Shown here: piece after piece, positions 6,891-19,533 of the stretch
Numbering within the stretch: the first letter of the stretch is position 1
How the letters are laid out: the number at the start of each line of letters is the position of its first letter
Source: Alphaproteobacteria bacterium
GTDB taxonomy: Bacteria > Pseudomonadota > Alphaproteobacteria > UBA828
Reading direction: 5' to 3'
Length of the DNA stretch: 64,000 bases
Assembly (NCBI GenBank): GCA_965237415.1
Contig: CBDEFM010000001.1
Location: forward strand, 288,001-352,000
Translations under genes and position numbers: made by a program
The notes under the pieces: generated by a model
Seen by the model: only the letters and a program-made list of their open reading frames with translations
The model's database searches: none
Told to the model about the DNA's origin: nothing

Positions 6891-7166
6891 TCACCGGTTG
6901 ACGGCATCGCGGAGCGCCTTGCCGGCCTTGAACGACGGTGCCTTCGAGGCGGCGACGGCGATGCTTTCGCCGGTCGCGGGATTGCGGGCCTGTCTTGCCG
7001 CCCTGGCCCTGGTCGAGAAGCGCCCGAACCCCGCGATGGCGACGGTGTCGTCATGCGCCAGAGCGTCGGTGATGGCGGAGAATACGGCAGCGACGGCACG
7101 ATTGGCGGTTGCGTTGTCCAGAGACGCCTCGGCGGCCACGCGGGCGGTCAATTCGGACTTGTTCAT
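6891..7166 (-). CDS. hup: HU-family DNA-binding protein
   Basis: MNKSEL...GFGRF...ARNPATGE...PSFKAGKALRDAVN. Confidence 0.95.
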   Translation of the reverse strand: MNKSELTARVAAEASLDNATANRAVAAVFSAITDALAHDDTVAIAGFGRFSTRARAARQARNPATGESIAVAASKAPSFKAGKALRDAVNR

Positions 7167-7989
7167 GGTGTATCCCCCGGGGTGCGATCGGACAGCCGCG
7201 GTCGGTGCGGCCTCCGGCAAGGGTGCCGATTCGCCGGGCGGCGATCAACGGGTGGTGTGACAACCCGGACCAACGGGTACGTCCCCGACCCGGCATGGCG
7301 TTGCGGGACGGGCTGAGTCGGGTTGGGGATGTCGAACCCGACATCGGGTACCGGGCAAGCGACCGGAGCCACGCGAGCCAACCGCGGTTGCCTCTGTGGA
7401 CATGGCGATGTCTTCCGATATGAGCGTGGGCAGACGGCGGTGGCGGATTTGCCCGTCGCGGAGGACAGGCCGGCCGCGCGGATGCCCCGCGCCTCCGGAT
7501 GCCCTCCCAGCATGAATTTCTACGCAAACGGCATTTTCGTTCCGGTCGGCACGCCGCCAATGAAAGCGGTGGTGCATGCGGTGCATGCGGATTGTCGAAC
7601 GCGTCCCGATCCCGGTCGAGCGCGTCGGCATGCGGCAGGACCGGAGGGTTCCGAGAGCATCCGTGTCGTCGCGAGCGGCAGCCGACCGGCATCGATCGCC
7701 GCGAACATCGGGCGCGTGAGATCCGGGCCGGTACCGCCTGGATGCGGGCGGTGTCGCATCGGAATCAGAAACGCCCGGAGAACGACGTGCCCCGGCGAGT
7801 ACCCCACGTTCGGTCGGGGTTTGAATGACGCGACGGCCGCCCCATACCAATCGATGGAGAACATGCGGCCGGGCGCTCATGGCGGGAACCGTATGTTCGA
7901 GAAGAGAAAGGATGTCATTTGTGGAGTCGCCGCCGCCGGCGGCGATTTCACCCGTTCACCCTCGTTGCCGATGGCGCTCGGCGCTGATG

Positions 7990-8150
7990 GACACCGTGTC
8001 CGGGCGCAGCGCCCGGGCCGGCGCAGCGCCGGGAGCGAATTGGTGGCGAGCCTGCACAGGGGACGCTGGAAGACCACCGCGAAGGTGAATCGCTACGCCA
8101 AGCGGTTGCTCACCCGTCGCAGGCACGCGAGTGACCTCGCGCGGGCGCGG
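7990..8150 (+). pseudogene. Decayed C-terminal fragment of a Cre-like recombinase paralog
   Basis: VSGRSARAGAA in one frame, then LHRGRWKTTAKVNRYAKRLL in another, versus ISGHSTRVGAA...LHAGRWKTTAMVNRYGERLL in 9363-10334. Confidence 0.75.
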
Positions 8151-9034
8151 GTCCGACTGACCGGGTTCACCGGTGCACCGGCAACCGGTATCGTGCCGAC
8201 GCCACCGCCGCGCGCGATTGCACGGGGAATCGGTATGCGATTTCGACGTCGCGCGGTCCGTGCAGCCCTTCATCGCAATCGCGCAAGGCGCCTCGCCCCG
8301 CGTGACGCACGACAGGGCGTTACCGGGCACCCACGGTCATTCGCACTGTGTCTGTCGACAGCCCCGCACAGTACAGCGCGCTCTCCGGCGAAGTGTGTCT
8401 GGAACTTCGGTGCGCGCCGGCTATCGTCGGCGTCAGTCACCGACGCACAGGCAACGAGATGGCTTGCATCGGCAAGGCGACGGACCGCCACCGGAGCGGA
8501 GTGCGCACACCGACCCCACTGGGCGCCCTCGCGGGTCGCGCCGCAACGACGATGTTGCATCCGCGCATTCGAAGGTGCGTCGACGGCCATCGCGCCCGGG
8601 GCGGGGGTAGCCGGTTGCAGGCGAAACACCCGAAGGCGTCCCCGTGCGGCAGGCCCAATGCCGGTCGAGCATCGAGGTTGCCGCAAACGGCATTTTCATT
8701 CCCGCCGCCGAGTCGATAGTCAGGTCGGTGCACGACACGGCAGCCGCGGCCGGAGGCGCGGACGGTGAAGCGGAGAGGATCGGAAAGCTCGGGAGCGGAG
8801 ACGGCGAACCGCCGCAACGGCGCCGGGGAATGCCGGGCGCGGCGGGCCGTCCATCGCGGCGCGACAGGCGCGATCTTGGCCACGGGCAGGCCATCGGACG
8901 GGCTGCTCTCGCACGTGTCGGGACGCGCATGCACCGAAGGCGCTCGAAGCGCCCGGTCGCGTCCGAAAAATTGTTTGAAAGCAACCGGTTGCGGCGGATT
9001 CCAAGCAGCTCTGGCCTGGAGTCCACGACACCGT

Positions 9035-9068
9035 TTGGCTCGCGATAACTGTTGTTATCGCGAGCCAA
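9035..9068. other. lox-like recombination site A (13-8-13)
   Basis: TTGGCTCGCGATA-ACTGTTGT-TATCGCGAGCCAA; perfect arms and an asymmetric spacer. Confidence 0.88.
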
Positions 9069-9254
9069 CTTGTCAATTCCTGCGTTTCCGACCGGCGACC
9101 CGGAGGCTGCCCAGTCTCGACCCGAACATCGTAAGCCGTGCCGGAACTCGATACAACCGGTTGGTTCAAGGGCGGTTTCTTCCTCCCGGGACGCGCCGAC
9201 TGTGATGCGCGCGCCTCCCTCGCCCGGAAGCCGACCCTGAGCCCGGCGACGATT

Positions 9255-9267
9255 TTGGCTCGCGATA
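9255..9267 (+). promoter_or_regulatory. Isolated lox-like half-site
   Basis: TTGGCTCGCGATA followed by ACA; no second arm. Confidence 0.65.
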
Positions 9268-9362
9268 ACATTTTCTGGAAATCCGCCCCTTGGCACGATT
9301 CCTGTCGGGCGCACGGCGCCGGACGCCGCCGTGGGTACGCCGCATGATACGCCACCGCGCCC

Positions 9363-10334
9363 CTACTCGCGATGCTGTAAACGGGCGAGCTGCGCCGCCC
9401 CGCTTCGCCGCGCCAGGAGGCGCTCGCCGTAGCGGTTGACCATCGCCGTCGTCTTCCACCGTCCCGCGTGCAGGATGGCCGCCATGCCGATGCCTTCGGC
9501 GACCATGTCCTGCGCCGCCCCGACCCGTGTGCTGTGCCCGGAGATGCGCTCGACGACGTCGCCGGGCAATCCGGCACGCTCGGCCATGGCCTTGAAGATG
9601 CGCGGCACCTGGCTCGCATCGAGCCGCTCGCCGACCGCACCCCGGTTCAGCGAGCGGAAGAGCATGCCTTGGCACACGCCGCTTCGCTCGAGCCACTCGT
9701 GCACCAGCGCCACGCTGTCGCGCGCAAGATACGCCGTCGCGCCCCGGCCTTCGGCGTCCGTCTTGGAGCGGCGCACCAGCACCGTGGCCGCGCCGTCGCG
9801 TTCTTCAACGATATCCGTCACTTGCAGCGCGACGAGCTCGCCCCGGCGCAGCAGCGTGTCGTAGGCGACGGCCAGTAGCGCGCGGTTGCGCGCATCGATG
9901 AGCCCATCGCCCATGGCGTCGAGCAGGCGCTCGCGCAGCGCCCCGGTGAGCCCCTTGGCCTGCGCCTGACGCCGGCCCGTTCGCCGGTGCATGCGCTGCA
10001 GCGCGCGTCGCACCGGCTCGCGTTGCGTCGTCTTTCCCACCCCCATCGCCCGGTGCGCGGCGGCGATGCTCGCCACGTAGCGGCGCACCGTCGCGGGCGC
10101 GCGGACCCGGGCCATGGCGTCGACGAACGCGGCGAGGGTCTCGGCGCTCGCGGCCAGCGCCGGCTCACCGCGCTCGGTGCACCAGGCGGCGTAGATGGCG
10201 AGGTCGGAGCGCAGCGCCCGCTCGGTGTTGGCGCTCAGCGCCCCGCGCGCGGCCTTGGTGCAGGCGTCGAGCGTGTCCCGGTGAGTCTGGCCGTCGCTCT
10301 CGCGCGGCGGGTAGCGAACGGCGTCTACCAGCAT
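9363..10334 (-). CDS. Cre-like tyrosine recombinase
   Basis: RNRALLAVAYDTLLRRGEL, RSKTD, SGHSTRVGAAQDM, AGRWKTTAMVNRY (R-K-H-R-W-Y set with Trp as in Cre); GGAGG RBS before ATG 10334. Confidence 0.93.
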   Translation of the reverse strand: MLVDAVRYPPRESDGQTHRDTLDACTKAARGALSANTERALRSDLAIYAAWCTERGEPALAASAETLAAFVDAMARVRAPATVRRYVASIAAAHRAMGVGKTTQREPVRRALQRMHRRTGRRQAQAKGLTGALRERLLDAMGDGLIDARNRALLAVAYDTLLRRGELVALQVTDIVEERDGAATVLVRRSKTDAEGRGATAYLARDSVALVHEWLERSGVCQGMLFRSLNRGAVGERLDASQVPRIFKAMAERAGLPGDVVERISGHSTRVGAAQDMVAEGIGMAAILHAGRWKTTAMVNRYGERLLARRSGAAQLARLQHRE

Positions 10335-10371
10335 GGGGAAGCCTCCAGGTCCGTGGAATACGGCCCGGAGA

Positions 10372-10405
10372 TTGGCTCGCGATAACAACAGTTATCGCGA
10401 GCCAA
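10372..10405. other. lox-like recombination site B, inverted relative to site A
   Basis: TTGGCTCGCGATA-ACAACAGT-TATCGCGAGCCAA; exact reverse complement of 9035-9068. Confidence 0.88.
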
Positions 10406-10563
10406 ATCGAGTGCGGCGGGGCGACCGGTTCGGACGTGGGCGAAGACGAGGAGCCACGGGCGATGTCGGGGCCATGTCCGCCGTGTCTCGGCTGGGAAGG
10501 GGGACGTCGGGCGCTCGCGCGCGGCGCCTGCGGCGACGAAGGCAAGGCCGGGGAGATGGGTTC

Positions 10564-13500
10564 ATGGCGAGAGTGAGACAGGCAACCGCGTCACGCGGCC
10601 GCACGGGGGCGCCGGAAACCGCCTCGACGCAGTGGGGGGCGCGGTGTCGGCAGGAGAAGCGAGCGGCAATCGCGCCCGGGAAGACACCGGAGGCGGCACA
10701 TGCGTCGCGACGGGAGCCGGTAGCACCCGTCTCCCGGCGGCGAGACTGCCCGCCTAGACCTTCTCCCACCGCGCGGTCCCCGCGCGGGCTATCTTCCTCC
10801 CTACTCGCTTATTTCGCGGCCGTCCCGGCGGCGGCGCTGCGCTGCCTGTCCCCGGATCGGGGTCCGGGGCAAGCCCCGCGCGCGGTTTCCTCCCGGCGCC
10901 GCGGCCCGCCTGCCGCCGCGCTACGCGCCGGGGCGGGCATCGCCCTGCTGCTGCTCGCCATGCTGACCGCCCTGCCGGCCCAGGCGCAGACCGACACCAC
11001 GGCGCCGACGCTCGTCACGACCAGCGCTCGCGGACCCACAGTCATTAGCACTGGCTTATCTCTCTACTTGATTTACGACGAGAATCTGGACCACGACAAC
11101 CATCCACCGGTCAGCGCCTTCAGCGTCATGGTCGATAGCAGTCCGATCACGGTGACAAGCGTAGAGGAAAGAACAACTATCAGCTTGAGGCTGAATCTGT
11201 CCCCCACCATCCGCCAGGGCCAGACCGTCACGGTGAGCTACACCGATCCGAGCTCGAGCAACGACGCCAACGCAATCCAGGACGCGGCCGGCAACGACGC
11301 CGCCACCTTCGCGAACCAGGCGATACGCAACATATCCACCGTCACCGGCATCCCCGGCGCCCCGACGGGGCTGTCGGCGACGAAGATGGGCGCCACGCAG
11401 ATCGACCTTTCCTGGACCGCGCCGACGGACACCGGCGGTGCGGAAATCACCGGCTACAAGATCGAGTGGTCGGCCAACGGCAATGCCCCCTGGAATGAGC
11501 TGATCGCGGACACCGGCAACACGGACACGACGTATTCCGACACCGGGCTCGCCTCGAAGACCACGCGCCACTACCGGGTTTCGGCGAGAAATTCCTTCGA
11601 CCTCGGCCCCGGCCCCGCCTCGAACGTCGACGACGCCACCACCGACGACATCGTCGGGCCGGTGCTGGTGAGGGTGTCGATCAACGCGTCCGGCGATAAT
11701 GTAAGGTTTTTCTTTGACGAGGCGCTTGACCAGCGCTCAGGAAAAACCCCGCCGGAGAGCGCCTTCGAGGTGCTGGCCGATGGAGTCCGGGTAGCGACAG
11801 ACGGTTTCGACGCGGTTTCGGAACCCCACCGTATTGTGCTCGTAACTACCGCCCCGACCATCAAGCAGGGCCAGACGGTCGTCGTCACCTACACCGACCC
11901 GAGCACGGGCAACGATCCCGTCGCCATCCAGGACCTGGCGGGCAACGACGCGGCGACCTTCACCACCGGCGTGTCGGGCGTCCCCGCGGTCGTCAACAGT
12001 TCCAACGTCGCGAATCCCGCCCCGGACGCGCCGACGGGGCTGACGGCGACGAAGATGGGCGGCACGCAGATCGACCTTTCCTGGACGGAGCCGGCGGACC
12101 CTGGCGATGCGGTAATCACGGGCTACTGGATCGAGGTCTCGGATACCGGCGCTACCGGCCCCTGGACCGAGCTGATCGCGGACACCGGCAACACGGACAA
12201 GACGTATTCCGACACCGGGCTCGCCTCGGAAACCACGCGCCACTACCGGGTTCGGGCGATCAATTCCTTCGGCCCCGGCCCCGCCTCGAACATCGACTCT
12301 GCCACCACCGACGACATCGTCGCGCCGGAGCTGGTGAGGGTGTCGATCAACGCGTTCGGCGATAATGTAAGGTTTTTCTTTGACGGGGCGCTTGACCAGC
12401 GCTCAGGAAAGACCCCGCCGGAGAGCGCCTTCGAGGTGCTGGCCGATGGAGTCCGGGTAGCGACAGACGGTTTCGACGCGGTTTCGGAACCCCACCGTAT
12501 TGTGCTCGTAACTACCGCCCCGACCATCAAGCAGGGCCAAACGGTCGTCGTTACCTACACCGACCCGAGCACGGGCAACGATGCCGCCGCCATCCAGGAT
12601 GCCGCCGGCAACGACGTGGCGACATTCACCACCGGAAAGGCGGGCGTCCCCGCGGTCGTCAACAGTTCCAATCAACCCGGCGTGAAGATATCCAAGACGG
12701 AACTGAGCATCGACGAAGGCGGCACCGGCACCTACACGGTGGCGCTCTATTCGCAGCCGACGGCGACGGTGACGGTCACGCCGTCGCGCACCAGCGGCGA
12801 TGCGGACATCACCGTGAGCGGCGGCCCCCTCACCTTCACCACGACGACCTGGAATGTGGCGCAGACGGTGACGGTACGCGCGGCCGAGGATGCGGATTTG
12901 GTTCGCGATACGGCCGTGATCGGCCACGCGGTGAGCGGCGGCAACTACGCCTCGGTCATGGCCGCTTCGGTGACCGTCACCGCGGCTGACAACGATGCGT
13001 CCAACGAGCCTGCCACCGGCAAGCCGACGATTTCAGGGACGGCGCAGGTCGGCCAGACGCTGACCGCGGCGAAGGGCAACATCAACGACCCAAACGGGCT
13101 GACCAAGGCCGACAACGACGAGACGGGCTTCGCCTACACCTACCAGTGGATCCGGGTGGATTCCGACGGCACGTCGAACCCGATGAATGTCGGGACCTCG
13201 AGCACCTACACGCTGGCGGCGTTGGACGAGGACAAGAAGATCAAGGTGGAAGTGAGCTTCCACGACGACAATGGCCACGCGGAGACGCGGACGAGCGACG
13301 CGTATCCGTCCGCGGACACGGTCCTGCCCTCTTCGGCGGTGAGCCTGTTGCTGTCGCCTGCATCGATCCGCGAGAACGGCGGCAGTGCCAGGATCAGGGC
13401 AAGGCTGAACGTGGCGTCGAGTGCCGAGACGACGGTCACGGTATCGGTCGAGCCGGTCCCGCCGGCGGTCGCCGGGGACTACGCGCTGAGCGCCAACACG

Positions 13501-16500
13501 GTGCTGAGGATTGCCGCCGGGCGGACCTTCAGCACGGGCCTGGTGACGCTGACGGCGGTGAACAACGATGTGGACGCGGACGACAAGACGGTCATCATCC
13601 TGGGCGATGCGGAGAACAGCGCGGGCGTTGGCGGTCCGGCCGAGGAGACGCTGACGATCGCGGACGACGATCGGGGCGTGCGGCTGGGCACGCGGTCGCT
13701 CGCGATCGATGAGGGCCGCAGCAAGGGCTACACGGTGGTGTTGGGGTCGCGGCCCACGGGGACGGTGACGGTGACGCCGCAGGTTCCGCCCGGCATGGTG
13801 ACGGTGTCGGGGCCGCTCCGGTTCACGCCGAGCACATGGGACGAGCCGCAGACGGTGACGGTGACGGCGGGCCAGGACGAGGACGAGGAGGACGAGTCGG
13901 TCCAGGTGACGCACGTTGTGTCGGGCGCGGATTACGGCGGCGTGACCGCGGACATCGTGCGGGTCACGGTGAGCGACGACGACGGCGGCACGGGCGTGCT
14001 GGAGGTGGGTGTGTATGACGGCTCGGACGGGGCCGGCGTCAAGGACCCGCCGCCGCAGGTGCATTTCGGGCAGCCGTTCAGGCTCGACCTGGTGTGGTCG
14101 CATCTGCGGACGAAGCATTGGGACAATCCGGAGTACGCGATCGGGCCGACCCGGGCGATCCGGGCGGTCGGCGGGACGGTGCGTGCGGTGCGGGGCCGGT
14201 TCAGCCCGCCCAGTAAGGGGGACCACGGCTGGGACCAGGCGCGCCTGACGCTCGAGGTCACGCCCGAGGCGAGCGACGGCAGCGACGACGTGACGCTGGT
14301 CCTGGAGCCGATGGATTGCAGCAGCAATGACGCGCGAGCGCTGTGCGCCTTCGCCAGCATCGGGAAGTGGACCGGCCTGGCGAAACGGGTGCGCTTCACG
14401 GTGCGCGGTATCACCGGTCCGCCGGAGGTGGCGCCGGCGGAGCTGGACCTGACGGTGACCCCGCAGGAGCGGCGCGGCACGGATATGTTCCTGGTGAGCT
14501 TCGACGCCGACGAGGAGGGGACGCGCTTCCGGCTGCAGACGCAGGCGGCCGGCGGGGATTGGACGAGAACGCGCGAGTGGACCGGGGCGATGCGCTCGGA
14601 GAACCAGCATCGGGTGACGGTCGACGGGGTGTCGCACGATGACGCCTACGAGTTCCGGGTGCGCTGGGAGAACCGCTTCGGGCCGGGGCCGTGGGCGCAA
14701 GCGAGCACGGCCGGCGCGGCGCCGGCGGCGCCGACAAGGCTCACGCTCACGGCGATGTACGACGCCAAGAGCCTGGCGCTCGCCTGGACCCCGGCGGCAG
14801 GCGGGGTGCGGATCGACCGCTTCCAGTACCGGATCGAGCGAATCCGTAGCGAGGAGCTGGTTATCCTTTCGGACACGGGGCCGATTCAATATTTGGGCAA
14901 TTGGATCGACATTCCGAACAGCGGAACGGGCGGCGCGAACCACCGTTCGTGGACGATCGGGGGGCTTGCGAACATATGGGCCGCCAGGATCCGGGTGCGC
15001 GCGGTGAGCGCGTCGGGCCGCGCGGGCGCGGCCTCGGCGGAAGCGGTGGCGGCGGTCGACGTGCCGCGGGTGGTGGACATCTCGATGGCGTCGGACCCCG
15101 GTGCCGACGGGTACTACACGTACGGAAACAGGATCGGGATCAACGTGAGGTTGAGCCGTCCGGTCCGCATCCCGGGTAACGATCGGGGACCGTCGCTGGA
15201 GGTCGAGATCGGAAGCCGCGTGTACAGCCTGGGGCTGGTGTCGATGCGGCAGTCGGTGGCGCATGAACTGATCGGACAGGCGCCGTTGTCGGGCGACGTG
15301 CTGTTCTTCGAGCACAGCCTTGGTACGGGTGACGTGGACCACAACGGGATCCGGGTGCCGGCCGGCGCGCTCAAAGGCAATGGCGGGCGGCTGCTCGACC
15401 TGACACCCGCGGGAGAAGACCAGGTGGCGGACCTCGCCGTGAGCACGGCAAAAACCTTCCCGGCGCACAAGGTGAACACGGTCCCGCCGGGCATCGTGCG
15501 CATGACCTGGCAGCAGAACCTGGACACGAAGGGCGTGGTGCGGGGCGCCGAGGTGCGCATCCACTACGACCGCGACCTCGACCCGGATTCGAGGCTGGAT
15601 CCCGGCAGGGTCCAGTACCGGGTGGCGTATTCGGAGTCGCGGGCGCTCGGCCGCAGCGTGACGGGACTGAGCATCGGCGACGCCACCGACGACGGGATCG
15701 ACAACCCCCGGACGGTGCGGCTGGTGCTGGCGCCGGTGGTCCACGATCCGAGCACCAACCCGCGCAACAGCCCGACGCCGCCCGAGACCGTGACGGTGAC
15801 CTATTCGGGAATGAAAGTGAGCGGGAACACCGGGCGGCGATACGGCCCCTTCGATACGCTGGGGAACCCCCTCGCGGGCTTCACCCGGGCGGCGGAGCAC
15901 CTGACCGCGACGCAGGCAGCGTTGGCGGCGGAGTTCCGAAACGTACCGCCCGAGCACAACAGCCCGTTCACCTTCGAGGTGCATTTCAGCGAGGAGGTCG
16001 CGCTCACCGAAGAGATGCTGCTGAACTCGGTCTTCACGGTGACCAACGGCACGGTGTCGGCCGCGCGGCGGCTCAATCCGCCGAGCAACATCGCCTGGGA
16101 GATCACGGTCGATTCGATCACCGAGGAGGCGGTGACGGTGGTGCTGCCGGAGACCACGGACTGCACCGTGGCGGGCGCGATCTGCACCTGGGACGAGCGC
16201 CCGCTCTCGGCGGAGATTTCGGCGACGGTGGCCGGCCCGCAGATCGTGGCGACGAGCGTGGTGACGAGCGCGGCGGTGACCAACGGTCCCGGAGACAATG
16301 GCACCTGGGACACCGGCGAAACCGTCGAGGCCGAGGTGCGCTTCAGCGCGCCGGTGACGGTGGTGGCGCCTCCGGGCTCCGGGCCGATCCTCGCCATCCT
16401 GCTCGACGGCACGCGCCGCGAGGCGGCGTACACCGGCGGTTCAGGCACCGACACGCTGCGCTTCAGCTACACGGTTGCGGAAGCGGACAACGGAGCCCGG

Positions 16501-19500
16501 AAGGCGCGCGTTGCCCCGAACGGGCTCGCGCTCAACGGAACGACCATCGGAGACAGTGAAGGCGTCGCGGCCGATATCGGTTTCTCTACCGCGCCGTATG
16601 TGACGGCTGTCGAACTCGCGGCGGATGGCTCGGGGGACGGGATCTGGACCCCAGGCGAGACTATTGCCGCCCGCCTCACCTTCAGCGAGGCGGTGACGGT
16701 GGCGGGCGGCACGCCGTATCTCTGGATCACGGTCGCAGGGATGCCGGGCGCGCTCGGCTACGCGTCCGGATCGGGAAGCGACACGCTGGTCTTCTCCATA
16801 GAGGTGCCGGGCGGGAGCCTCTCCGAAATCGAGGTGACGGCGGACAGTCTCAACGCCAACGGCGCGGCCATCGTGTCGCAGGCGAGCGGCATCGCGGCGG
16901 AGCTCGGCCATGACGGCACGGCGCCGGAGGCGGCGCCGGAGAACGCGGGCGCCACCGCGCTGACGGCGGCGTTCGCGGAGCTGCCGGAGAGCCACGGCGG
17001 CGCGGCGTTCACCTTCGAGCTCCGCTTCAGCGAGGCGTTCCCGATCGGCTACGAGACGATGCGCGACGATGCGTTCACGGTGACGAACGGGCGTGTGACC
17101 GGGGCGCGACGCCTCGACAATCCGCACCGCGAGTCCGTGCGCATGGAACCCAACCGGGTATGGGAGATCACCGTCGAGCCCGACACGGACGCCGGAGACG
17201 TCTCGATTGCGCTGCCTGAAACGACCGACTGCACCGCGGCCGGCGCGGTCTGCACCGGGGACAACCGCCCGCTCACGGCGGAGATTTCGGCGACGGTGGC
17301 CGGCCCGGCGCAGGCGGTGACGCCCCCGCCGCCGGGCTTCCGGGTCCGCTTCGAGGACTTCCCGTCGGAGCATGACGGGACCAGCGCGGTCGTCTTCAAG
17401 GTGATGTTCAACAAGAAGCCGGCGAACTACAGCTACCGCACGATGCGCGACAACACGCTCCTCGCCCGGCAGGGGAGCCAAGCGGTCACGCCCAAGCGGG
17501 CCAAACGCCTCAACGCACCGCACAGCGACCAGTGGCGGATCACGATCGAGCCGGCCTCCAAGGCGGACATGCACGTCGAGATCCGCCACACCACGGCGTG
17601 CACCGAAACGGGCGCGGTGTGCACGGCGGAGAACGAACAGCTCTCGAACCGGCTCTCGAAGACGATCCTCGGCCCTCCGGGGCTCGCGGTGGCGGACGCG
17701 CGGGTGGAGGAAGCGGCGAACGCGACGGTGGACTTCGCGGTGACGCTCAGCCGCGCGTCATCGTCGACGGTGACGGTGGACTATGCGACCTCGGACGGCA
17801 CGGCGACGGCGGGCAGCGACTACACGGCGACGTCGGGGACGCTGACCTTCGCGCCGGGCGACACGGCGAAGACGGTGTCGGTGCCGGTGCTGGACGACGC
17901 CCATGACGAGGACCATGAGACGTTCACGCTGACGCTCTCCAACCCCTCGGGCGGCAACGCCTGGCTCTCCGACGCCACGGCGACGGGCACGATCGAGAAC
18001 ACCGACAAGATGCCGCAGGCGTGGCTGGCGCGCTTCGGGCGCACGGTGGCCGACCAGGTGATCGACGCGGTGCAGGGCCGCATTCAGGCGCAGCCGAGTC
18101 CCGGGGTCGCGGTGAGTCTCGCGGGCCAGGCGATCGGCGCCAACGGATCGTTGTCCGGGGCCGGTTCCGCGGAGCCGGACGGTGCGGACGCGCGGGCGAC
18201 GCTGGCCGAGGAGACCGAGGCCCGGTCGCGGCTGGAGACGATGTCGAACTGGCTGCAGGGCGAGAATGAGGAGGATGGCAGTCGGGCCGGGTTCCAGTCA
18301 CGCAGCGTGACGGAACGCGACCTGCTGACCGGGACGTCGTTCTCGCTGACCGGCGAGGCCGCGGCGGGCGGCGGCTACGCGTCGCTGTGGGGCCGGGGCG
18401 CGGTCTCGCGCTTCGACGGCCGCGACGGCGATCTCACGCTCGACGGCGAGGTGACGAGCGCGATGCTCGGGGCGGACTGGACGCGCGATGCGTGGACCGC
18501 CGGGCTTCTGGTGTCGCATTCGCGCGGCGACGGCAGCTACCGGGGCGAGGGCGAGGGCAAGGTCGAGAGCGCGCTGACCGGGCTCTATCCCTATGGGCGC
18601 TATGCGGTGAGCGACCGCGTGACGGTCTGGGGCGTGGCCGGCTACGGGTCGGGCACGCTCACGCTGACGCCGAAGAACCCGGTGGAGGGCGAGGACGACA
18701 GGCCGATCGAGACCGATATGAGCCTGACGATGGGCGCGGTGGGCGTGCGCGGGGTGATGATTGAGGCGCCGGCCGAAGGCGGCCCGGAGCTCGCGGTCAA
18801 GTCCGACGCGATGATGGTGCGCACGAGCTCGGAGGCGGCAAGCGGCAGCGGCGGCAATCTCGCGGCGGCGGACGCCGATGTGACCCGTCTGCGTCTCGGG
18901 CTTGAGGGAACCTGGCGCGGCATCGAGGCCGGCGGCGGGGAACTGACGCCGCGTCTCGAGGTGGGCGTGCGCCATGACGGCGGCGACGCCGAGACCGGCT
19001 TCGGCCTCGACCTCGGTGGCGGGCTTGCCTGGTCGCATCCGGCGAGCGGGATATCGGCCGAGCTCAGCGGGCGCGGCTTGCTGACCCACGAGGCCGGCGG
19101 CTTCCGCGACCGTGGTATCTCGGGCTCGCTCGGCTGGGATCCGCGGCCGGAGACCGGGCGCGGGGTGAGCCTCACGCTGACCCAGACGCTGGGTGCGTCG
19201 GCCTCGGGCGGCATGGACGCGCTCTTGTCGCGCGGCACCCTGGCGGATCTGGCGGCCAACGACGACGGGGCGGACGATCTGCAGCGCCGCCGTCTGGAGC
19301 TCCGGCTCGGCTACGGCGTCTCCGCCTTCGGGGACCGGTTCACGGCGACGCCGGAGATCGGGCTCGGCCTGTCGGACAGCGCGCGCGACTACAGCCTCGG
19401 CTGGCGGCTCGGTCTCGACCGGTCCGGGGCGAACGCGCTCGAACTCCGGATCGAGGCGACGCGGCGCGAGAGCGCCAACGACAACGCGGACCCGGAGCAC

Positions 19501-19533
19501 GGCATCGGGTTCAAGCTGACGGCGAGCTGGTGA
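10564..19533 (+). CDS. Giant autotransporter adhesin (SwmB-like, FN3, Calx-beta/Ig-like repeats, C-terminal beta-barrel)
   Basis: ~2990 aa; signal-like ALLLLAMLTALPAQAQ; YTDPS..ND..AIQDAAGNDAATF repeats; PTGLSA..IDLSW..YRVRA.N FN3; VDYATSDGTATAGSDY Calx-beta; WLARFGRTVA linker; terminal W. Start uncertain (frame open from 10333). Confidence 0.92.
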   Translation: MARVRQATASRGRTGAPETASTQWGARCRQEKRAAIAPGKTPEAAHASRREPVAPVSRRRDCPPRPSPTARSPRGLSSSLLAYFAAVPAAALRCLSPDRGPGQAPRAVSSRRRGPPAAALRAGAGIALLLLAMLTALPAQAQTDTTAPTLVTTSARGPTVISTGLSLYLIYDENLDHDNHPPVSAFSVMVDSSPITVTSVEERTTISLRLNLSPTIRQGQTVTVSYTDPSSSNDANAIQDAAGNDAATFANQAIRNISTVTGIPGAPTGLSATKMGATQIDLSWTAPTDTGGAEITGYKIEWSANGNAPWNELIADTGNTDTTYSDTGLASKTTRHYRVSARNSFDLGPGPASNVDDATTDDIVGPVLVRVSINASGDNVRFFFDEALDQRSGKTPPESAFEVLADGVRVATDGFDAVSEPHRIVLVTTAPTIKQGQTVVVTYTDPSTGNDPVAIQDLAGNDAATFTTGVSGVPAVVNSSNVANPAPDAPTGLTATKMGGTQIDLSWTEPADPGDAVITGYWIEVSDTGATGPWTELIADTGNTDKTYSDTGLASETTRHYRVRAINSFGPGPASNIDSATTDDIVAPELVRVSINAFGDNVRFFFDGALDQRSGKTPPESAFEVLADGVRVATDGFDAVSEPHRIVLVTTAPTIKQGQTVVVTYTDPSTGNDAAAIQDAAGNDVATFTTGKAGVPAVVNSSNQPGVKISKTELSIDEGGTGTYTVALYSQPTATVTVTPSRTSGDADITVSGGPLTFTTTTWNVAQTVTVRAAEDADLVRDTAVIGHAVSGGNYASVMAASVTVTAADNDASNEPATGKPTISGTAQVGQTLTAAKGNINDPNGLTKADNDETGFAYTYQWIRVDSDGTSNPMNVGTSSTYTLAALDEDKKIKVEVSFHDDNGHAETRTSDAYPSADTVLPSSAVSLLLSPASIRENGGSARIRARLNVASSAETTVTVSVEPVPPAVAGDYALSANTVLRIAAGRTFSTGLVTLTAVNNDVDADDKTVIILGDAENSAGVGGPAEETLTIADDDRGVRLGTRSLAIDEGRSKGYTVVLGSRPTGTVTVTPQVPPGMVTVSGPLRFTPSTWDEPQTVTVTAGQDEDEEDESVQVTHVVSGADYGGVTADIVRVTVSDDDGGTGVLEVGVYDGSDGAGVKDPPPQVHFGQPFRLDLVWSHLRTKHWDNPEYAIGPTRAIRAVGGTVRAVRGRFSPPSKGDHGWDQARLTLEVTPEASDGSDDVTLVLEPMDCSSNDARALCAFASIGKWTGLAKRVRFTVRGITGPPEVAPAELDLTVTPQERRGTDMFLVSFDADEEGTRFRLQTQAAGGDWTRTREWTGAMRSENQHRVTVDGVSHDDAYEFRVRWENRFGPGPWAQASTAGAAPAAPTRLTLTAMYDAKSLALAWTPAAGGVRIDRFQYRIERIRSEELVILSDTGPIQYLGNWIDIPNSGTGGANHRSWTIGGLANIWAARIRVRAVSASGRAGAASAEAVAAVDVPRVVDISMASDPGADGYYTYGNRIGINVRLSRPVRIPGNDRGPSLEVEIGSRVYSLGLVSMRQSVAHELIGQAPLSGDVLFFEHSLGTGDVDHNGIRVPAGALKGNGGRLLDLTPAGEDQVADLAVSTAKTFPAHKVNTVPPGIVRMTWQQNLDTKGVVRGAEVRIHYDRDLDPDSRLDPGRVQYRVAYSESRALGRSVTGLSIGDATDDGIDNPRTVRLVLAPVVHDPSTNPRNSPTPPETVTVTYSGMKVSGNTGRRYGPFDTLGNPLAGFTRAAEHLTATQAALAAEFRNVPPEHNSPFTFEVHFSEEVALTEEMLLNSVFTVTNGTVSAARRLNPPSNIAWEITVDSITEEAVTVVLPETTDCTVAGAICTWDERPLSAEISATVAGPQIVATSVVTSAAVTNGPGDNGTWDTGETVEAEVRFSAPVTVVAPPGSGPILAILLDGTRREAAYTGGSGTDTLRFSYTVAEADNGARKARVAPNGLALNGTTIGDSEGVAADIGFSTAPYVTAVELAADGSGDGIWTPGETIAARLTFSEAVTVAGGTPYLWITVAGMPGALGYASGSGSDTLVFSIEVPGGSLSEIEVTADSLNANGAAIVSQASGIAAELGHDGTAPEAAPENAGATALTAAFAELPESHGGAAFTFELRFSEAFPIGYETMRDDAFTVTNGRVTGARRLDNPHRESVRMEPNRVWEITVEPDTDAGDVSIALPETTDCTAAGAVCTGDNRPLTAEISATVAGPAQAVTPPPPGFRVRFEDFPSEHDGTSAVVFKVMFNKKPANYSYRTMRDNTLLARQGSQAVTPKRAKRLNAPHSDQWRITIEPASKADMHVEIRHTTACTETGAVCTAENEQLSNRLSKTILGPPGLAVADARVEEAANATVDFAVTLSRASSSTVTVDYATSDGTATAGSDYTATSGTLTFAPGDTAKTVSVPVLDDAHDEDHETFTLTLSNPSGGNAWLSDATATGTIENTDKMPQAWLARFGRTVADQVIDAVQGRIQAQPSPGVAVSLAGQAIGANGSLSGAGSAEPDGADARATLAEETEARSRLETMSNWLQGENEEDGSRAGFQSRSVTERDLLTGTSFSLTGEAAAGGGYASLWGRGAVSRFDGRDGDLTLDGEVTSAMLGADWTRDAWTAGLLVSHSRGDGSYRGEGEGKVESALTGLYPYGRYAVSDRVTVWGVAGYGSGTLTLTPKNPVEGEDDRPIETDMSLTMGAVGVRGVMIEAPAEGGPELAVKSDAMMVRTSSEAASGSGGNLAAADADVTRLRLGLEGTWRGIEAGGGELTPRLEVGVRHDGGDAETGFGLDLGGGLAWSHPASGISAELSGRGLLTHEAGGFRDRGISGSLGWDPRPETGRGVSLTLTQTLGASASGGMDALLSRGTLADLAANDDGADDLQRRRLELRLGYGVSAFGDRFTATPEIGLGLSDSARDYSLGWRLGLDRSGANALELRIEATRRESANDNADPEHGIGFKLTASW
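11350..12672 (+). repeat. Intragenic tandem duplication of an FN3+SwmB-like unit (~666 bp)
   Basis: 11640-11905 matches 12306-12571 at offset 666 with few substitutions. Confidence 0.9.

Follow-up and report, generated by a model that had tools for sequence, protein, structure and literature searches.

Cre/loxP of P1 and the SCre/SloxP, VCre/VloxP, Vika/vox and YR series of systems share a two-domain recombinase of about 320-345 amino acids (aa), a catalytic hexad and a gene-adjacent site of 13-8-13 geometry, one site to a system. The invertible H segment of Salmonella (Hin/hix) contains both the recombinase gene and an outward promoter, which in one orientation serves a neighboring surface-protein operon; Hin, a serine recombinase dependent on an enhancer and on Fis, occupies a single fixed locus rather than forming a mobile family. 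Here we describe a cassette with resemblances to both. It lies in a 64,000-nucleotide stretch of an Alphaproteobacteria genome (contig CBDEFM010000001.1, positions 288,001 to 352,000), designated the window, and consists of a Cre-type tyrosine recombinase gene enclosed by two inverted lox-like sites. Comparison with its relatives makes it fairly probable that the cassette is one intact member of a horizontally spread family of invertible promoter cassettes, Hin-like in plan and Cre-type in enzyme. The first-pass annotation of the window had described a single cassette; it is one member of a large, horizontally spread family, which changes its presumed purpose.

Tyrosine recombinases likewise flip the promoter of adhesin genes in the fimS (FimB/FimE) and ipuS (IpuA/IpuB) switches of E. 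coli, and fimS inversion uses integration host factor (IHF). These elements span 0.2-0.3 kb between short inverted repeats, with the recombinase genes outside, and have neither Cre-type enzymes nor 13-8-13 palindromic sites. In the pdif modules of Acinetobacter plasmids, inverted XerC/D sites bound discrete mobile units without target duplication, host Xer proteins act on 11-6-11 sites, and the modules carry cargo instead of a recombinase of their own. The ipuS switch drives a LuxR-type regulator and an autotransporter (PMC6083910).

The window cassette shares enzyme plan, catalytic hexad and site geometry with the Cre-type systems. It differs from them in its second, inverted site, in an added accessory half-site, IHF-like motif and outward -35 element, and in being chromosomal, multi-copy and present across phyla. 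Like the H segment, it holds the recombinase gene and an outward promoter candidate inside; unlike Hin, it belongs to a mobile family. Its Cre-type enzyme, its lox-like sites, a promoter candidate split across the crossover site and its mobility between phyla together set it apart from Hin, fimS and ipuS. From Xer/dif modules it is distinguished by 13-8-13 sites and its own recombinase, which scores 49 bits with NCBIfam Xer models against a cut-off of 335, and the sites do not qualify as dif-type.

GATA abuts the spacer in the window site, as it is reported to do in active YR sites (PMC10250229). With SloxM1, as given in PMC3082901, the site shares six of eight spacer bases, the inner CGATA and seven of 13 arm bases in all, so the likeness to SloxP proposed in the first-pass annotation holds. 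The recombinase is 29% identical to P1 Cre and at most 49% identical to any plasmid-borne relative. Its closest annotated homologs are plasmid genes of Methylobacterium and Methylorubrum (L102, L115, L116; 46-49% identity), which adjoin plasmid maintenance genes such as VapC/AbrB toxin-antitoxin pairs. A single GATA-N8-TATC site lies upstream of the gene in four of five plasmid relatives (42-49% identity), at -72 in three and at -99 in one; placed 72 bp before the annotated start in the Methylorubrum/Methylobacterium genes, it has the geometry of the cassette's 5' site (site-38 nt-ATG). None of the five has an inverted partner site, and the paired arrangement is therefore derived within the clade. 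A promoter for the recombinase upstream of the single site in a Methylorubrum relative was considered and rejected, as only weak hexamers were present. In the full-text literature, exclusive of supplements, we found neither a Cre-type recombinase enclosed by inverted sites, nor such a switch in a sponge symbiont, nor the window site sequence; Supplementary Table S2 of PMC10250229, with about 500 predicted Cre-type pairs, may list relatives. As far as checked, the enzyme and its predicted site thus form a new pair, as had been proposed from the window alone.

The window cassette and its family

The pattern TTGGCTCGCGATA-N8-TATCGCGAGCCAA occurs exactly twice in the window, without mismatch, as the 34-bp, 13-8-13 sites at the two ends of the cassette (Table 1); none of 100 dinucleotide shuffles, which served as control, contained a match. 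Because the spacers ACTGTTGT and ACAACAGT are reverse complements, the two sites are inverted, and the exact inverted pair of the first-pass annotation is confirmed. The palindrome really runs 15-4-15, only the central 4 bp (TGTT/AACA) being asymmetric. Both the window cassette and the family share with invertons a segment bounded by inverted recombinase sites.

The protein encoded between the sites matches Pfam Phage_integrase (PF00589; 2.6e-20, 73.3 bits against a cut-off of 27.1). Its top match among solved structures is Cre (2.8e-23, residues 28-308 on Cre 32-330), with XerD at 5.5e-7. The motifs SGHSTRVGAAQDM, GRWK and VNRY are present, and the six catalytic residues listed in Table 1 align with Cre R173, K201, H289, R292, W315 and Y324, as numbered in PMC10250229; all six are invariant in eight family members. 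The earlier identification of a 323-aa Cre-like recombinase is borne out by these matches. Ratios of nonsynonymous to synonymous substitution (dN/dS) are 0.30-0.39 for the window gene against copies L002, L022 and L025, and 0.22-0.39 across eight pairs of family recombinases, so the genes are under purifying selection. The window enzyme would be expected to be an active recombinase. At the 5' end of the cassettes an unconserved flank is followed by the site, about 25 nt, a conserved GGAGG and the ATG, which leaves no space for a promoter between site and gene; the position of the 5' site relative to the start codon is kept across the family.

Table 1. Features of the cassette and its neighborhood, in window coordinates.
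Feature	Position	Strand	Remarks
Whole cassette	9035..10405	-	1371 bp; bounds are the outer edges of both sites
5' lox-like site	10372..10405	.	13-8-13; spacer in gene orientation ACTGTTGT; ends 37 nt before ATG
3' lox-like site	9035..9068	.	inverted relative to 5' site; spacer in gene orientation ACAACAGT
Cre-type tyrosine recombinase	9363..10334	-	323 aa; sole gene between sites; R163, K191, H267, R270, W293, Y302
Shine-Dalgarno GGAGG of recombinase gene	10342..10346	-	CGGAGGC block about 25 nt past 5' site, conserved in 34 non-redundant long-form loci
Accessory half-site	9255..9269	-	one arm plus two spacer-proximal bases; exact 15-mer in A-rich context, 199 bp upstream of 3' site
IHF-like motif AACCAACCGGTTG	9154..9166	-	98 bp upstream of 3' site; one mismatch to presumed consensus WATCAANNNNTTR
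-35-like TTGACA	9071..9076	-	2 nt inside 3' site, directed out of cassette
-10-like AACAGT	9048..9053	-	in 3' site spacer, 17 bp after -35; only 3/6 match
Giant surface-type protein, 5' side	10333..19533	+	longest open reading frame (ORF) 3066 aa; SWM_repeat, fn3 and Calx-beta domains
Divergent HU/IHF-family gene, 3' side	6891..7220	-	Bac_DNA_binding 5.9e-30; 1.8 kb away; co-directional with outward promoter candidate

Relatives are encoded in 328 stretches of species-representative genomes (one per species scanned) from at least four phyla. The 87 loci analyzed comprise the best 80 of these 328, which have 60-84% identity and often occur several to a genome, and seven from the window genome and its genus. 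Taxon labels of the best 80 are Alpha- and Gammaproteobacteria, Vicinamibacterales, Longimicrobiales/Palauibacter and Chloroflexi. Paired sites, which the first-pass annotation had suggested seeking around homologs, were present by fixed criteria at both ends of 69 of the 87 loci; the spacers are inverted in all 69 and direct in none. Of these, 47 have a span of 1300-1499 bp and two a span of about 1900 bp; the other 20, at 1100-1199 bp, represent a compact form from Longimicrobiales and Vicinamibacterales. At eight variable positions, arms agree at 6.23 within a cassette and at 4.35 between cassettes.

The window genome (4.75 Mb, two contigs) holds four intact copies, with protein identities of 100, 86, 68 and 66%, plus fragments. 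The four have a common layout of 5' site, 37 nt, gene, tail with half-site, and inverted 3' site. Arm sequence differs from copy to copy: copy 2 has a G-to-A change in all five half-sites, while copies 3 and 4 have ATTGCGCTCGATA arms. Copies 1 and 2 are 86.4% identical over 1392 bp, and their homology ends at -6/+1 of the site edges. Within the genus, six of 20 other genomes have homologs; of 23 genomes from nine other genera of the family, none does. With regard to exchange among copies, copies 3 and 4 (C2:3020684-3022080 and C2:3124707-3126102) lie 100 kb apart on one contig and have the same arms and different spacers (ACTGTCGT and ACTGTCAC), which would block recombination between them; copies 1 and 2 have a common spacer but lie on separate contigs.

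In the long form, the tail between gene and 3' site contains an accessory half-site, a third exact 15-nt match that the first-pass annotation had overlooked. A search for half-sites gave seven matches at no more than three mismatches, against 1.6 expected; five of the seven are exact. Of 34 non-redundant long-form loci, 25 have a half-site at 174-212 bp from the 3' site, and the half-site tracks the arms of its own cassette (agreement of 6.64 against 4.44 of eight positions). Nearer the 3' site, at 85-99 bp, 15 of the 34 loci have a motif within one mismatch of WATCAANNNNTTR, which we take to be the IHF consensus and after which we call the motif IHF-like; 0.6 were expected from shuffles. The exact motif is found in four loci against 0.02 expected. 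This enrichment suggests that IHF may act in the cassette tail, and with half-site and motif both conserved, the long form may not recombine as a simple system.

A TATCAT/TATGAT block, conserved about 15-50 nt past the recombinase stop in long-form loci (9344-9349, minus strand, in the window) and set in a hairpin-like context in some relatives, might serve as a -10 element or belong to a terminator. Rfam models applied to window positions 8300-11200 gave no match at E up to 0.1.

Inversion and an outward promoter candidate

The first-pass annotation read the locus as a cassette of about 1.3 kb that flips its own recombinase gene. Comparative evidence supports that reading: the cassette is a discrete unit, its sites are inverted in every paired locus, and a crossover within the spacers can be traced between two relatives, L050 and L062, in the same Rhodobacterales metagenome-assembled genome (MAG). 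Their cassettes are 96.7% identical and in the same orientation, and their flanks are swapped and reverse-complemented (94.6% identity over 646 bp and 81.6% over 871 bp). The outer arms remain with the flanks, such that the L062 sites consist of matched arms and the L050 sites of reciprocal hybrids. Because the hybrid arms match the crossover predicted within the spacers, the pair documents a past site-specific inversion; inversion has occurred in relatives of the window cassette. As a separate feature, the 5' end of both L050 and L062 carries a tandem pair of sites, 47 bp from each other, the inner with arms unlike those of the outer, and their tail measures 820 bp.

Flip-type differences were also seen elsewhere. 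L098 differs in this way, relative to a conserved neighbor, from about 14 Longimicrobiales/Vicinamibacterales loci: its histidine kinase-response regulator (HK-RR) gene, of which 214 aa are left, starts 159 bp outside the 5' site, while elsewhere this gene starts about 160 bp outside the 3' site. L065 and L069 show a flip-type difference in the position of a MalT/LuxR-type regulator.

At the 3' end, 38 of the 69 paired loci have TTGAC at a fixed place, its first base 8 nt ahead of the site, in a surrounding stretch that is variable. For promoter statistics we used 43 non-redundant loci with dissimilar flanks, with the mirrored position at the 5' end as control. TTGACA matches at five or more of six positions at the 3' end in 30 of the 43, and at the control position in only one, on which account an outward promoter at the 5' end was rejected. 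With 16-18 bp between the hexamers, the -10 coincides with spacer bases 16-21 (TACAGT, AACAGT, TACAAT and similar); the hexamer has A2 in 38 loci and T6 in 30, and matches at four or more positions in 18. Since the two sites are inverted, the spacer hexamer is directed outward at either junction, and the -35 travels with the cassette. The 3' end is thus a candidate outward promoter, split between a -35 in the cassette and a -10 in the spacer, whose activity is predicted from hexamers and their spacing. A Caulobacter-type promoter consensus was also tried and rejected, as it does not suit the spacing.

In the mechanism we propose, the recombinase would bind the four co-varying 13-bp arms of the two inverted 34-bp sites, and strand exchange inside the 8-bp spacers would flip the 1.3-kb segment that carries its own gene. 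TTGACA inside the 3' site and the -10-like hexamer of the spacer would form a promoter firing out of the cassette, and a flip would shift it from one neighbor gene to the other. In the long form, a higher-order complex probably forms at the 3' site with the help of the half-site and an IHF-like bend site, both in the 300-bp tail. As assembled, the window's promoter candidate would point away from the gene for the 3066-aa surface protein and toward the HU/IHF-family gene; inversion would turn it toward the giant gene. Promoter activity and control of these neighbors are thus predictions from layout.

Several findings weigh against a working switch of this kind. The promoter candidate is incomplete in most of the 43 loci: a -35 of at least 5/6 occurs together with a -10 of at least 4/6 in just nine, and many spacers end in C where the T of a -10 is expected. 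A strict sigma-70 scan of window positions 8600-11100 returned no promoter; the window candidate fails it because its -10 matches at only three of six positions. No promoter for the recombinase itself was identified at the 5' end of family loci. In nearly all assembled loci, moreover, the promoter candidate is directed away from the adhesin gene; with orientation so nearly uniform, free and unbiased flipping is not seen, and flipping may be rare or strongly biased. Reads for the window locus (X1, X2, X3, X8) are represented by short metagenome contigs that break in the 34-bp sites (for example 8652-9064 and 9039-9410), leaving orientation unreadable, and they show no inversion at this locus. 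As to the family, the loci analyzed are not independent, many being paralogs or orthologs, and 18 of the 87 want one or both sites by the fixed criteria. Among these 18, the contigs of L027, L029 and L068 end less than 190 bp past the gene, and in L057 and L097 the 3' site lies 1.6-2.2 kb away.

Two further results from the same reads concern depth and joints. An "opposite strands" joint from 9064 to 10098/10099 (depth 34.3 in X1 and 25.2 in X2, side 34) is not the site-to-site joint of an inversion and is left uninterpreted. Summed contig depth over 9367-10433 in X1, X2, X3 and X8, at 90% likeness, lies in the hundreds to thousands, compared with roughly 30 on the flanks, because many related copies in the metagenomes match the recombinase gene at that likeness.

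Spread between genomes and neighboring genes

In 26 of 684 aligned copy pairs, the two ends of the homology each fall within 15 bp of a site; the 5' boundary does so in 295 of the 684. The window copy is 79% identical at the nucleotide level to Vicinamibacterales copy L025, with boundaries at 0/0, and 84% identical to a copy from a Gammaproteobacteria MAG, a pair that is also among the 26. In a protein tree (n=86), Vicinamibacterales copies are once nested in a Longimicrobiales clade (support 96) and once placed, within the clade of the window copy, next to one from Gammaproteobacteria (support 95); copies 1 and 2 of the window genome fall in another clade than copies 3 and 4. Synonymous divergence (dS) between the window copy and a Vicinamibacterales copy is 0.44. 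As these boundaries and placements indicate, the cassette spreads across phyla as a site-to-site unit. An association with sponges is a lead and not a result, as it comes from one record title (L024, "Spongia_Bin9") and from the style of other bin names.

A direct repeat of at least 3 nt flanks two of the 43 loci, against 5.9% in mismatched-flank controls, which amounts to no target-site duplication. With window positions 7300-12400 as query, the 20 further genomes of the genus yielded no empty site; the matches were parts of recombinases and repeat proteins, with no orthologous flank. A scan of the window genome for recombinase-free site pairs yielded none, only one orphan single site and one remnant. 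The cassette resembles a transposon in being a multi-copy unit whose homology ends at its repeats, and does not in that it lacks a DDE, HUH or serine transposase, its sole gene being that of a tyrosine recombinase.

The true start of the 3066-aa ORF on the 5' side is probably several hundred bp further in. The protein is paralogous to that of a 2700-aa gene beside copy 3; copies 2 and 4 have no such neighbor. A long divergent ORF fills the 5' flank in 38 of the 69 paired loci, the window included, and a co-directional ORF fills the 3' flank in seven. Nine of the first ten 5'-side ORFs examined with Pfam carry cadherin, fn3, SWM, Calx-beta, LapA, He_PIG or LRR domains; the other is a sulfatase. 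Among 52 5'-side ORFs, Calx-beta occurs in 12 and fn3 in 11, the sets overlapping. Also represented are SWM, LRR, Cadherin-like, Big_5, He_PIG, RTX and SRCR domains, together with housekeeping genes (release factor in three, an ammonium transporter, a relaxase). The 51 3'-side ORFs include 12 regulators of GAF-PAS-histidine kinase-receiver-OmpR type, two LysR, one LuxR-type and one HU; just one, at the flipped locus L098, has an adhesin-type domain.

The HU/IHF-family gene of the window scores below every NCBIfam cut-off. Paralogs 59-71% identical to it occupy the same relative position in six other loci (G000:C2:2250785-2251057, L022, L023, L028, L030 and L049), giving seven loci of the window's clade, window included, in which such a gene lies 1.1-1.8 kb past the 3' site and co-directional. 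Its product might, given the IHF-like motif of the tail, be a bending protein associated with the cassette. No gene is consistently conserved in the DNA that separates the HU/IHF-family gene from the 3' site.

In a number of Longimicrobiales/Vicinamibacterales loci (L073, L074, L079, L080, L082, L084, L085, L087, L088, L091, L093, L094 and L100), the repeated unit runs from base 1 of the 5' site to at least 2.5 kb past the 3' site. The extended unit passes through a gene of the hybrid GAF-PAS-HK-REC-OmpR type, and the giant genes opposite it have no homology at the DNA level.

Competing explanations, implications and remnants

A selfish transposable element, with the palindromic sites as terminal inverted repeats, the Cre-like protein as transposase, and inversion and neighbor pattern as by-products, would account for four intact copies, two remnants and an orphan site in one genome, for the 26 pairs with homology ending at both sites, for the patchy occurrence within the genus and family, and for the cross-phylum nesting (support 95-96) at a dS of 0.44. 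We nevertheless consider it unlikely, since excision of a segment between inverted sites is beyond a conservative tyrosine recombinase, target-site duplication is lacking, the genus yielded no empty site, and the non-random context and conserved outward -35 are left unexplained. A unit running site to site in distant genomes could also be read as cassette exchange, a natural counterpart of recombinase-mediated cassette exchange comparable to the Acinetobacter Xer modules, in which a double crossover between two site pairs swaps the contents of loci or replicons and inversion is a side reaction. The extra DNA between some sites (the spans of about 1.9 kb in L050/L062, and the 3' sites 1.6-2.2 kb downstream in L057 and L097) and the same arms with different spacers in copies 3 and 4 would suit such exchange. 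It needs an inverted site pair that existed beforehand, however, while the genome scan found no pair without recombinase, and it leaves the first insertions unexplained; we regard it as improbable.

Improbable to a similar degree is a switch that acts on the 3'-side gene (a regulator or the HU/IHF-family gene) or on the recombinase, the adhesin link then reflecting insertion preference or shared regulation. Here the promoter candidate's direction in nearly all assemblies, toward 3'-side genes that include HK-RR (12 of 51), LysR, LuxR-type and HU, agrees with the idea, as does the co-directional HU-family paralog of seven loci. In the window's own clade, though, the 3'-side genes are 1.1-1.8 kb off with intervening DNA that is not conserved, and the flipped L098 cassette faces an fn3 protein. 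An ordinary Cre-like system for dimer resolution or maintenance, with a duplicated site and no function in inversion, would be in keeping with the site-38 nt-ATG geometry of the single-site plasmid relatives; we hold it to be very improbable, as several chromosomal copies occur, all 69 loci with two sites have the second one inverted, and L050/L062 preserve an inversion product. Action on the palindromes in the manner of a hairpin-telomere resolvase was considered and dropped, the protein being Cre-sized and Cre-like over its full length, with nothing else in support. The use of folded single-stranded substrates, as in integrons, was another idea that we set aside.

The invertible promoter cassette family therefore remains our preferred reading. 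An extended version is put forward tentatively, as a possibility: that the cassette is a portable phase-variation module, in which recombinase, two inverted sites, accessory arm and half promoter travel together between phyla of a shared, apparently host-associated habitat, and insert between genes for giant adhesins or eukaryotic-like repeat proteins and regulator genes as a heritable toggle. Invertible switches are normally fixed and lineage-specific; a cross-phylum unit, if real, would be a new route to acquiring phase variation, and the insertion of a conservative recombinase with inverted ends raises a mechanistic question. The neighbors are giant cadherin, fn3, Calx-beta and LRR proteins, a class thought to mediate symbiont-host interaction, and a switch would make surface heterogeneity testable. 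The family would also provide a library of dozens of naturally co-evolved and potentially orthogonal pairs of Cre-type enzyme and site, whose co-varying arms and spacers offer candidate tools for genome engineering and a data set for the Cre-type recognition code. The split promoter candidate, its -35 on the mobile part and its -10 resident in the crossover spacer, would be a compact design.

Several remnants were noted in the window genome. L011 (G000:C2:2247122-2249631) is a 5'-truncated cassette (gene end, half-site and tail) broken by about 2.1 kb with a 600-695-aa ORF, after which TTGACA and the 3' site follow; its arms are those of copy 1 and its spacer differs (ACTACAGT). A solo TTGACA-plus-site remnant persists at G000:C2:3838744-3838777, where an orphan lox-like site with two arm mismatches is preceded by TTGACAGG. 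It has the structure of a cassette 3' end without recombinase, and may represent a fossil from which a fixed promoter remains. In the window itself, positions 8204-8511 and 7820-7920, which have no clear reading frame, are 73-79% identical to the matching flank of L049 only. Beside them, positions 7989-8150 (plus strand) code for the C-terminal 55 or so residues of a second family recombinase (50% identity to residues 266-320), including GRWKTTAKVNRY. This fragment, directed toward the 3' end of the cassette and with no associated site found, is probably a decayed older cassette.

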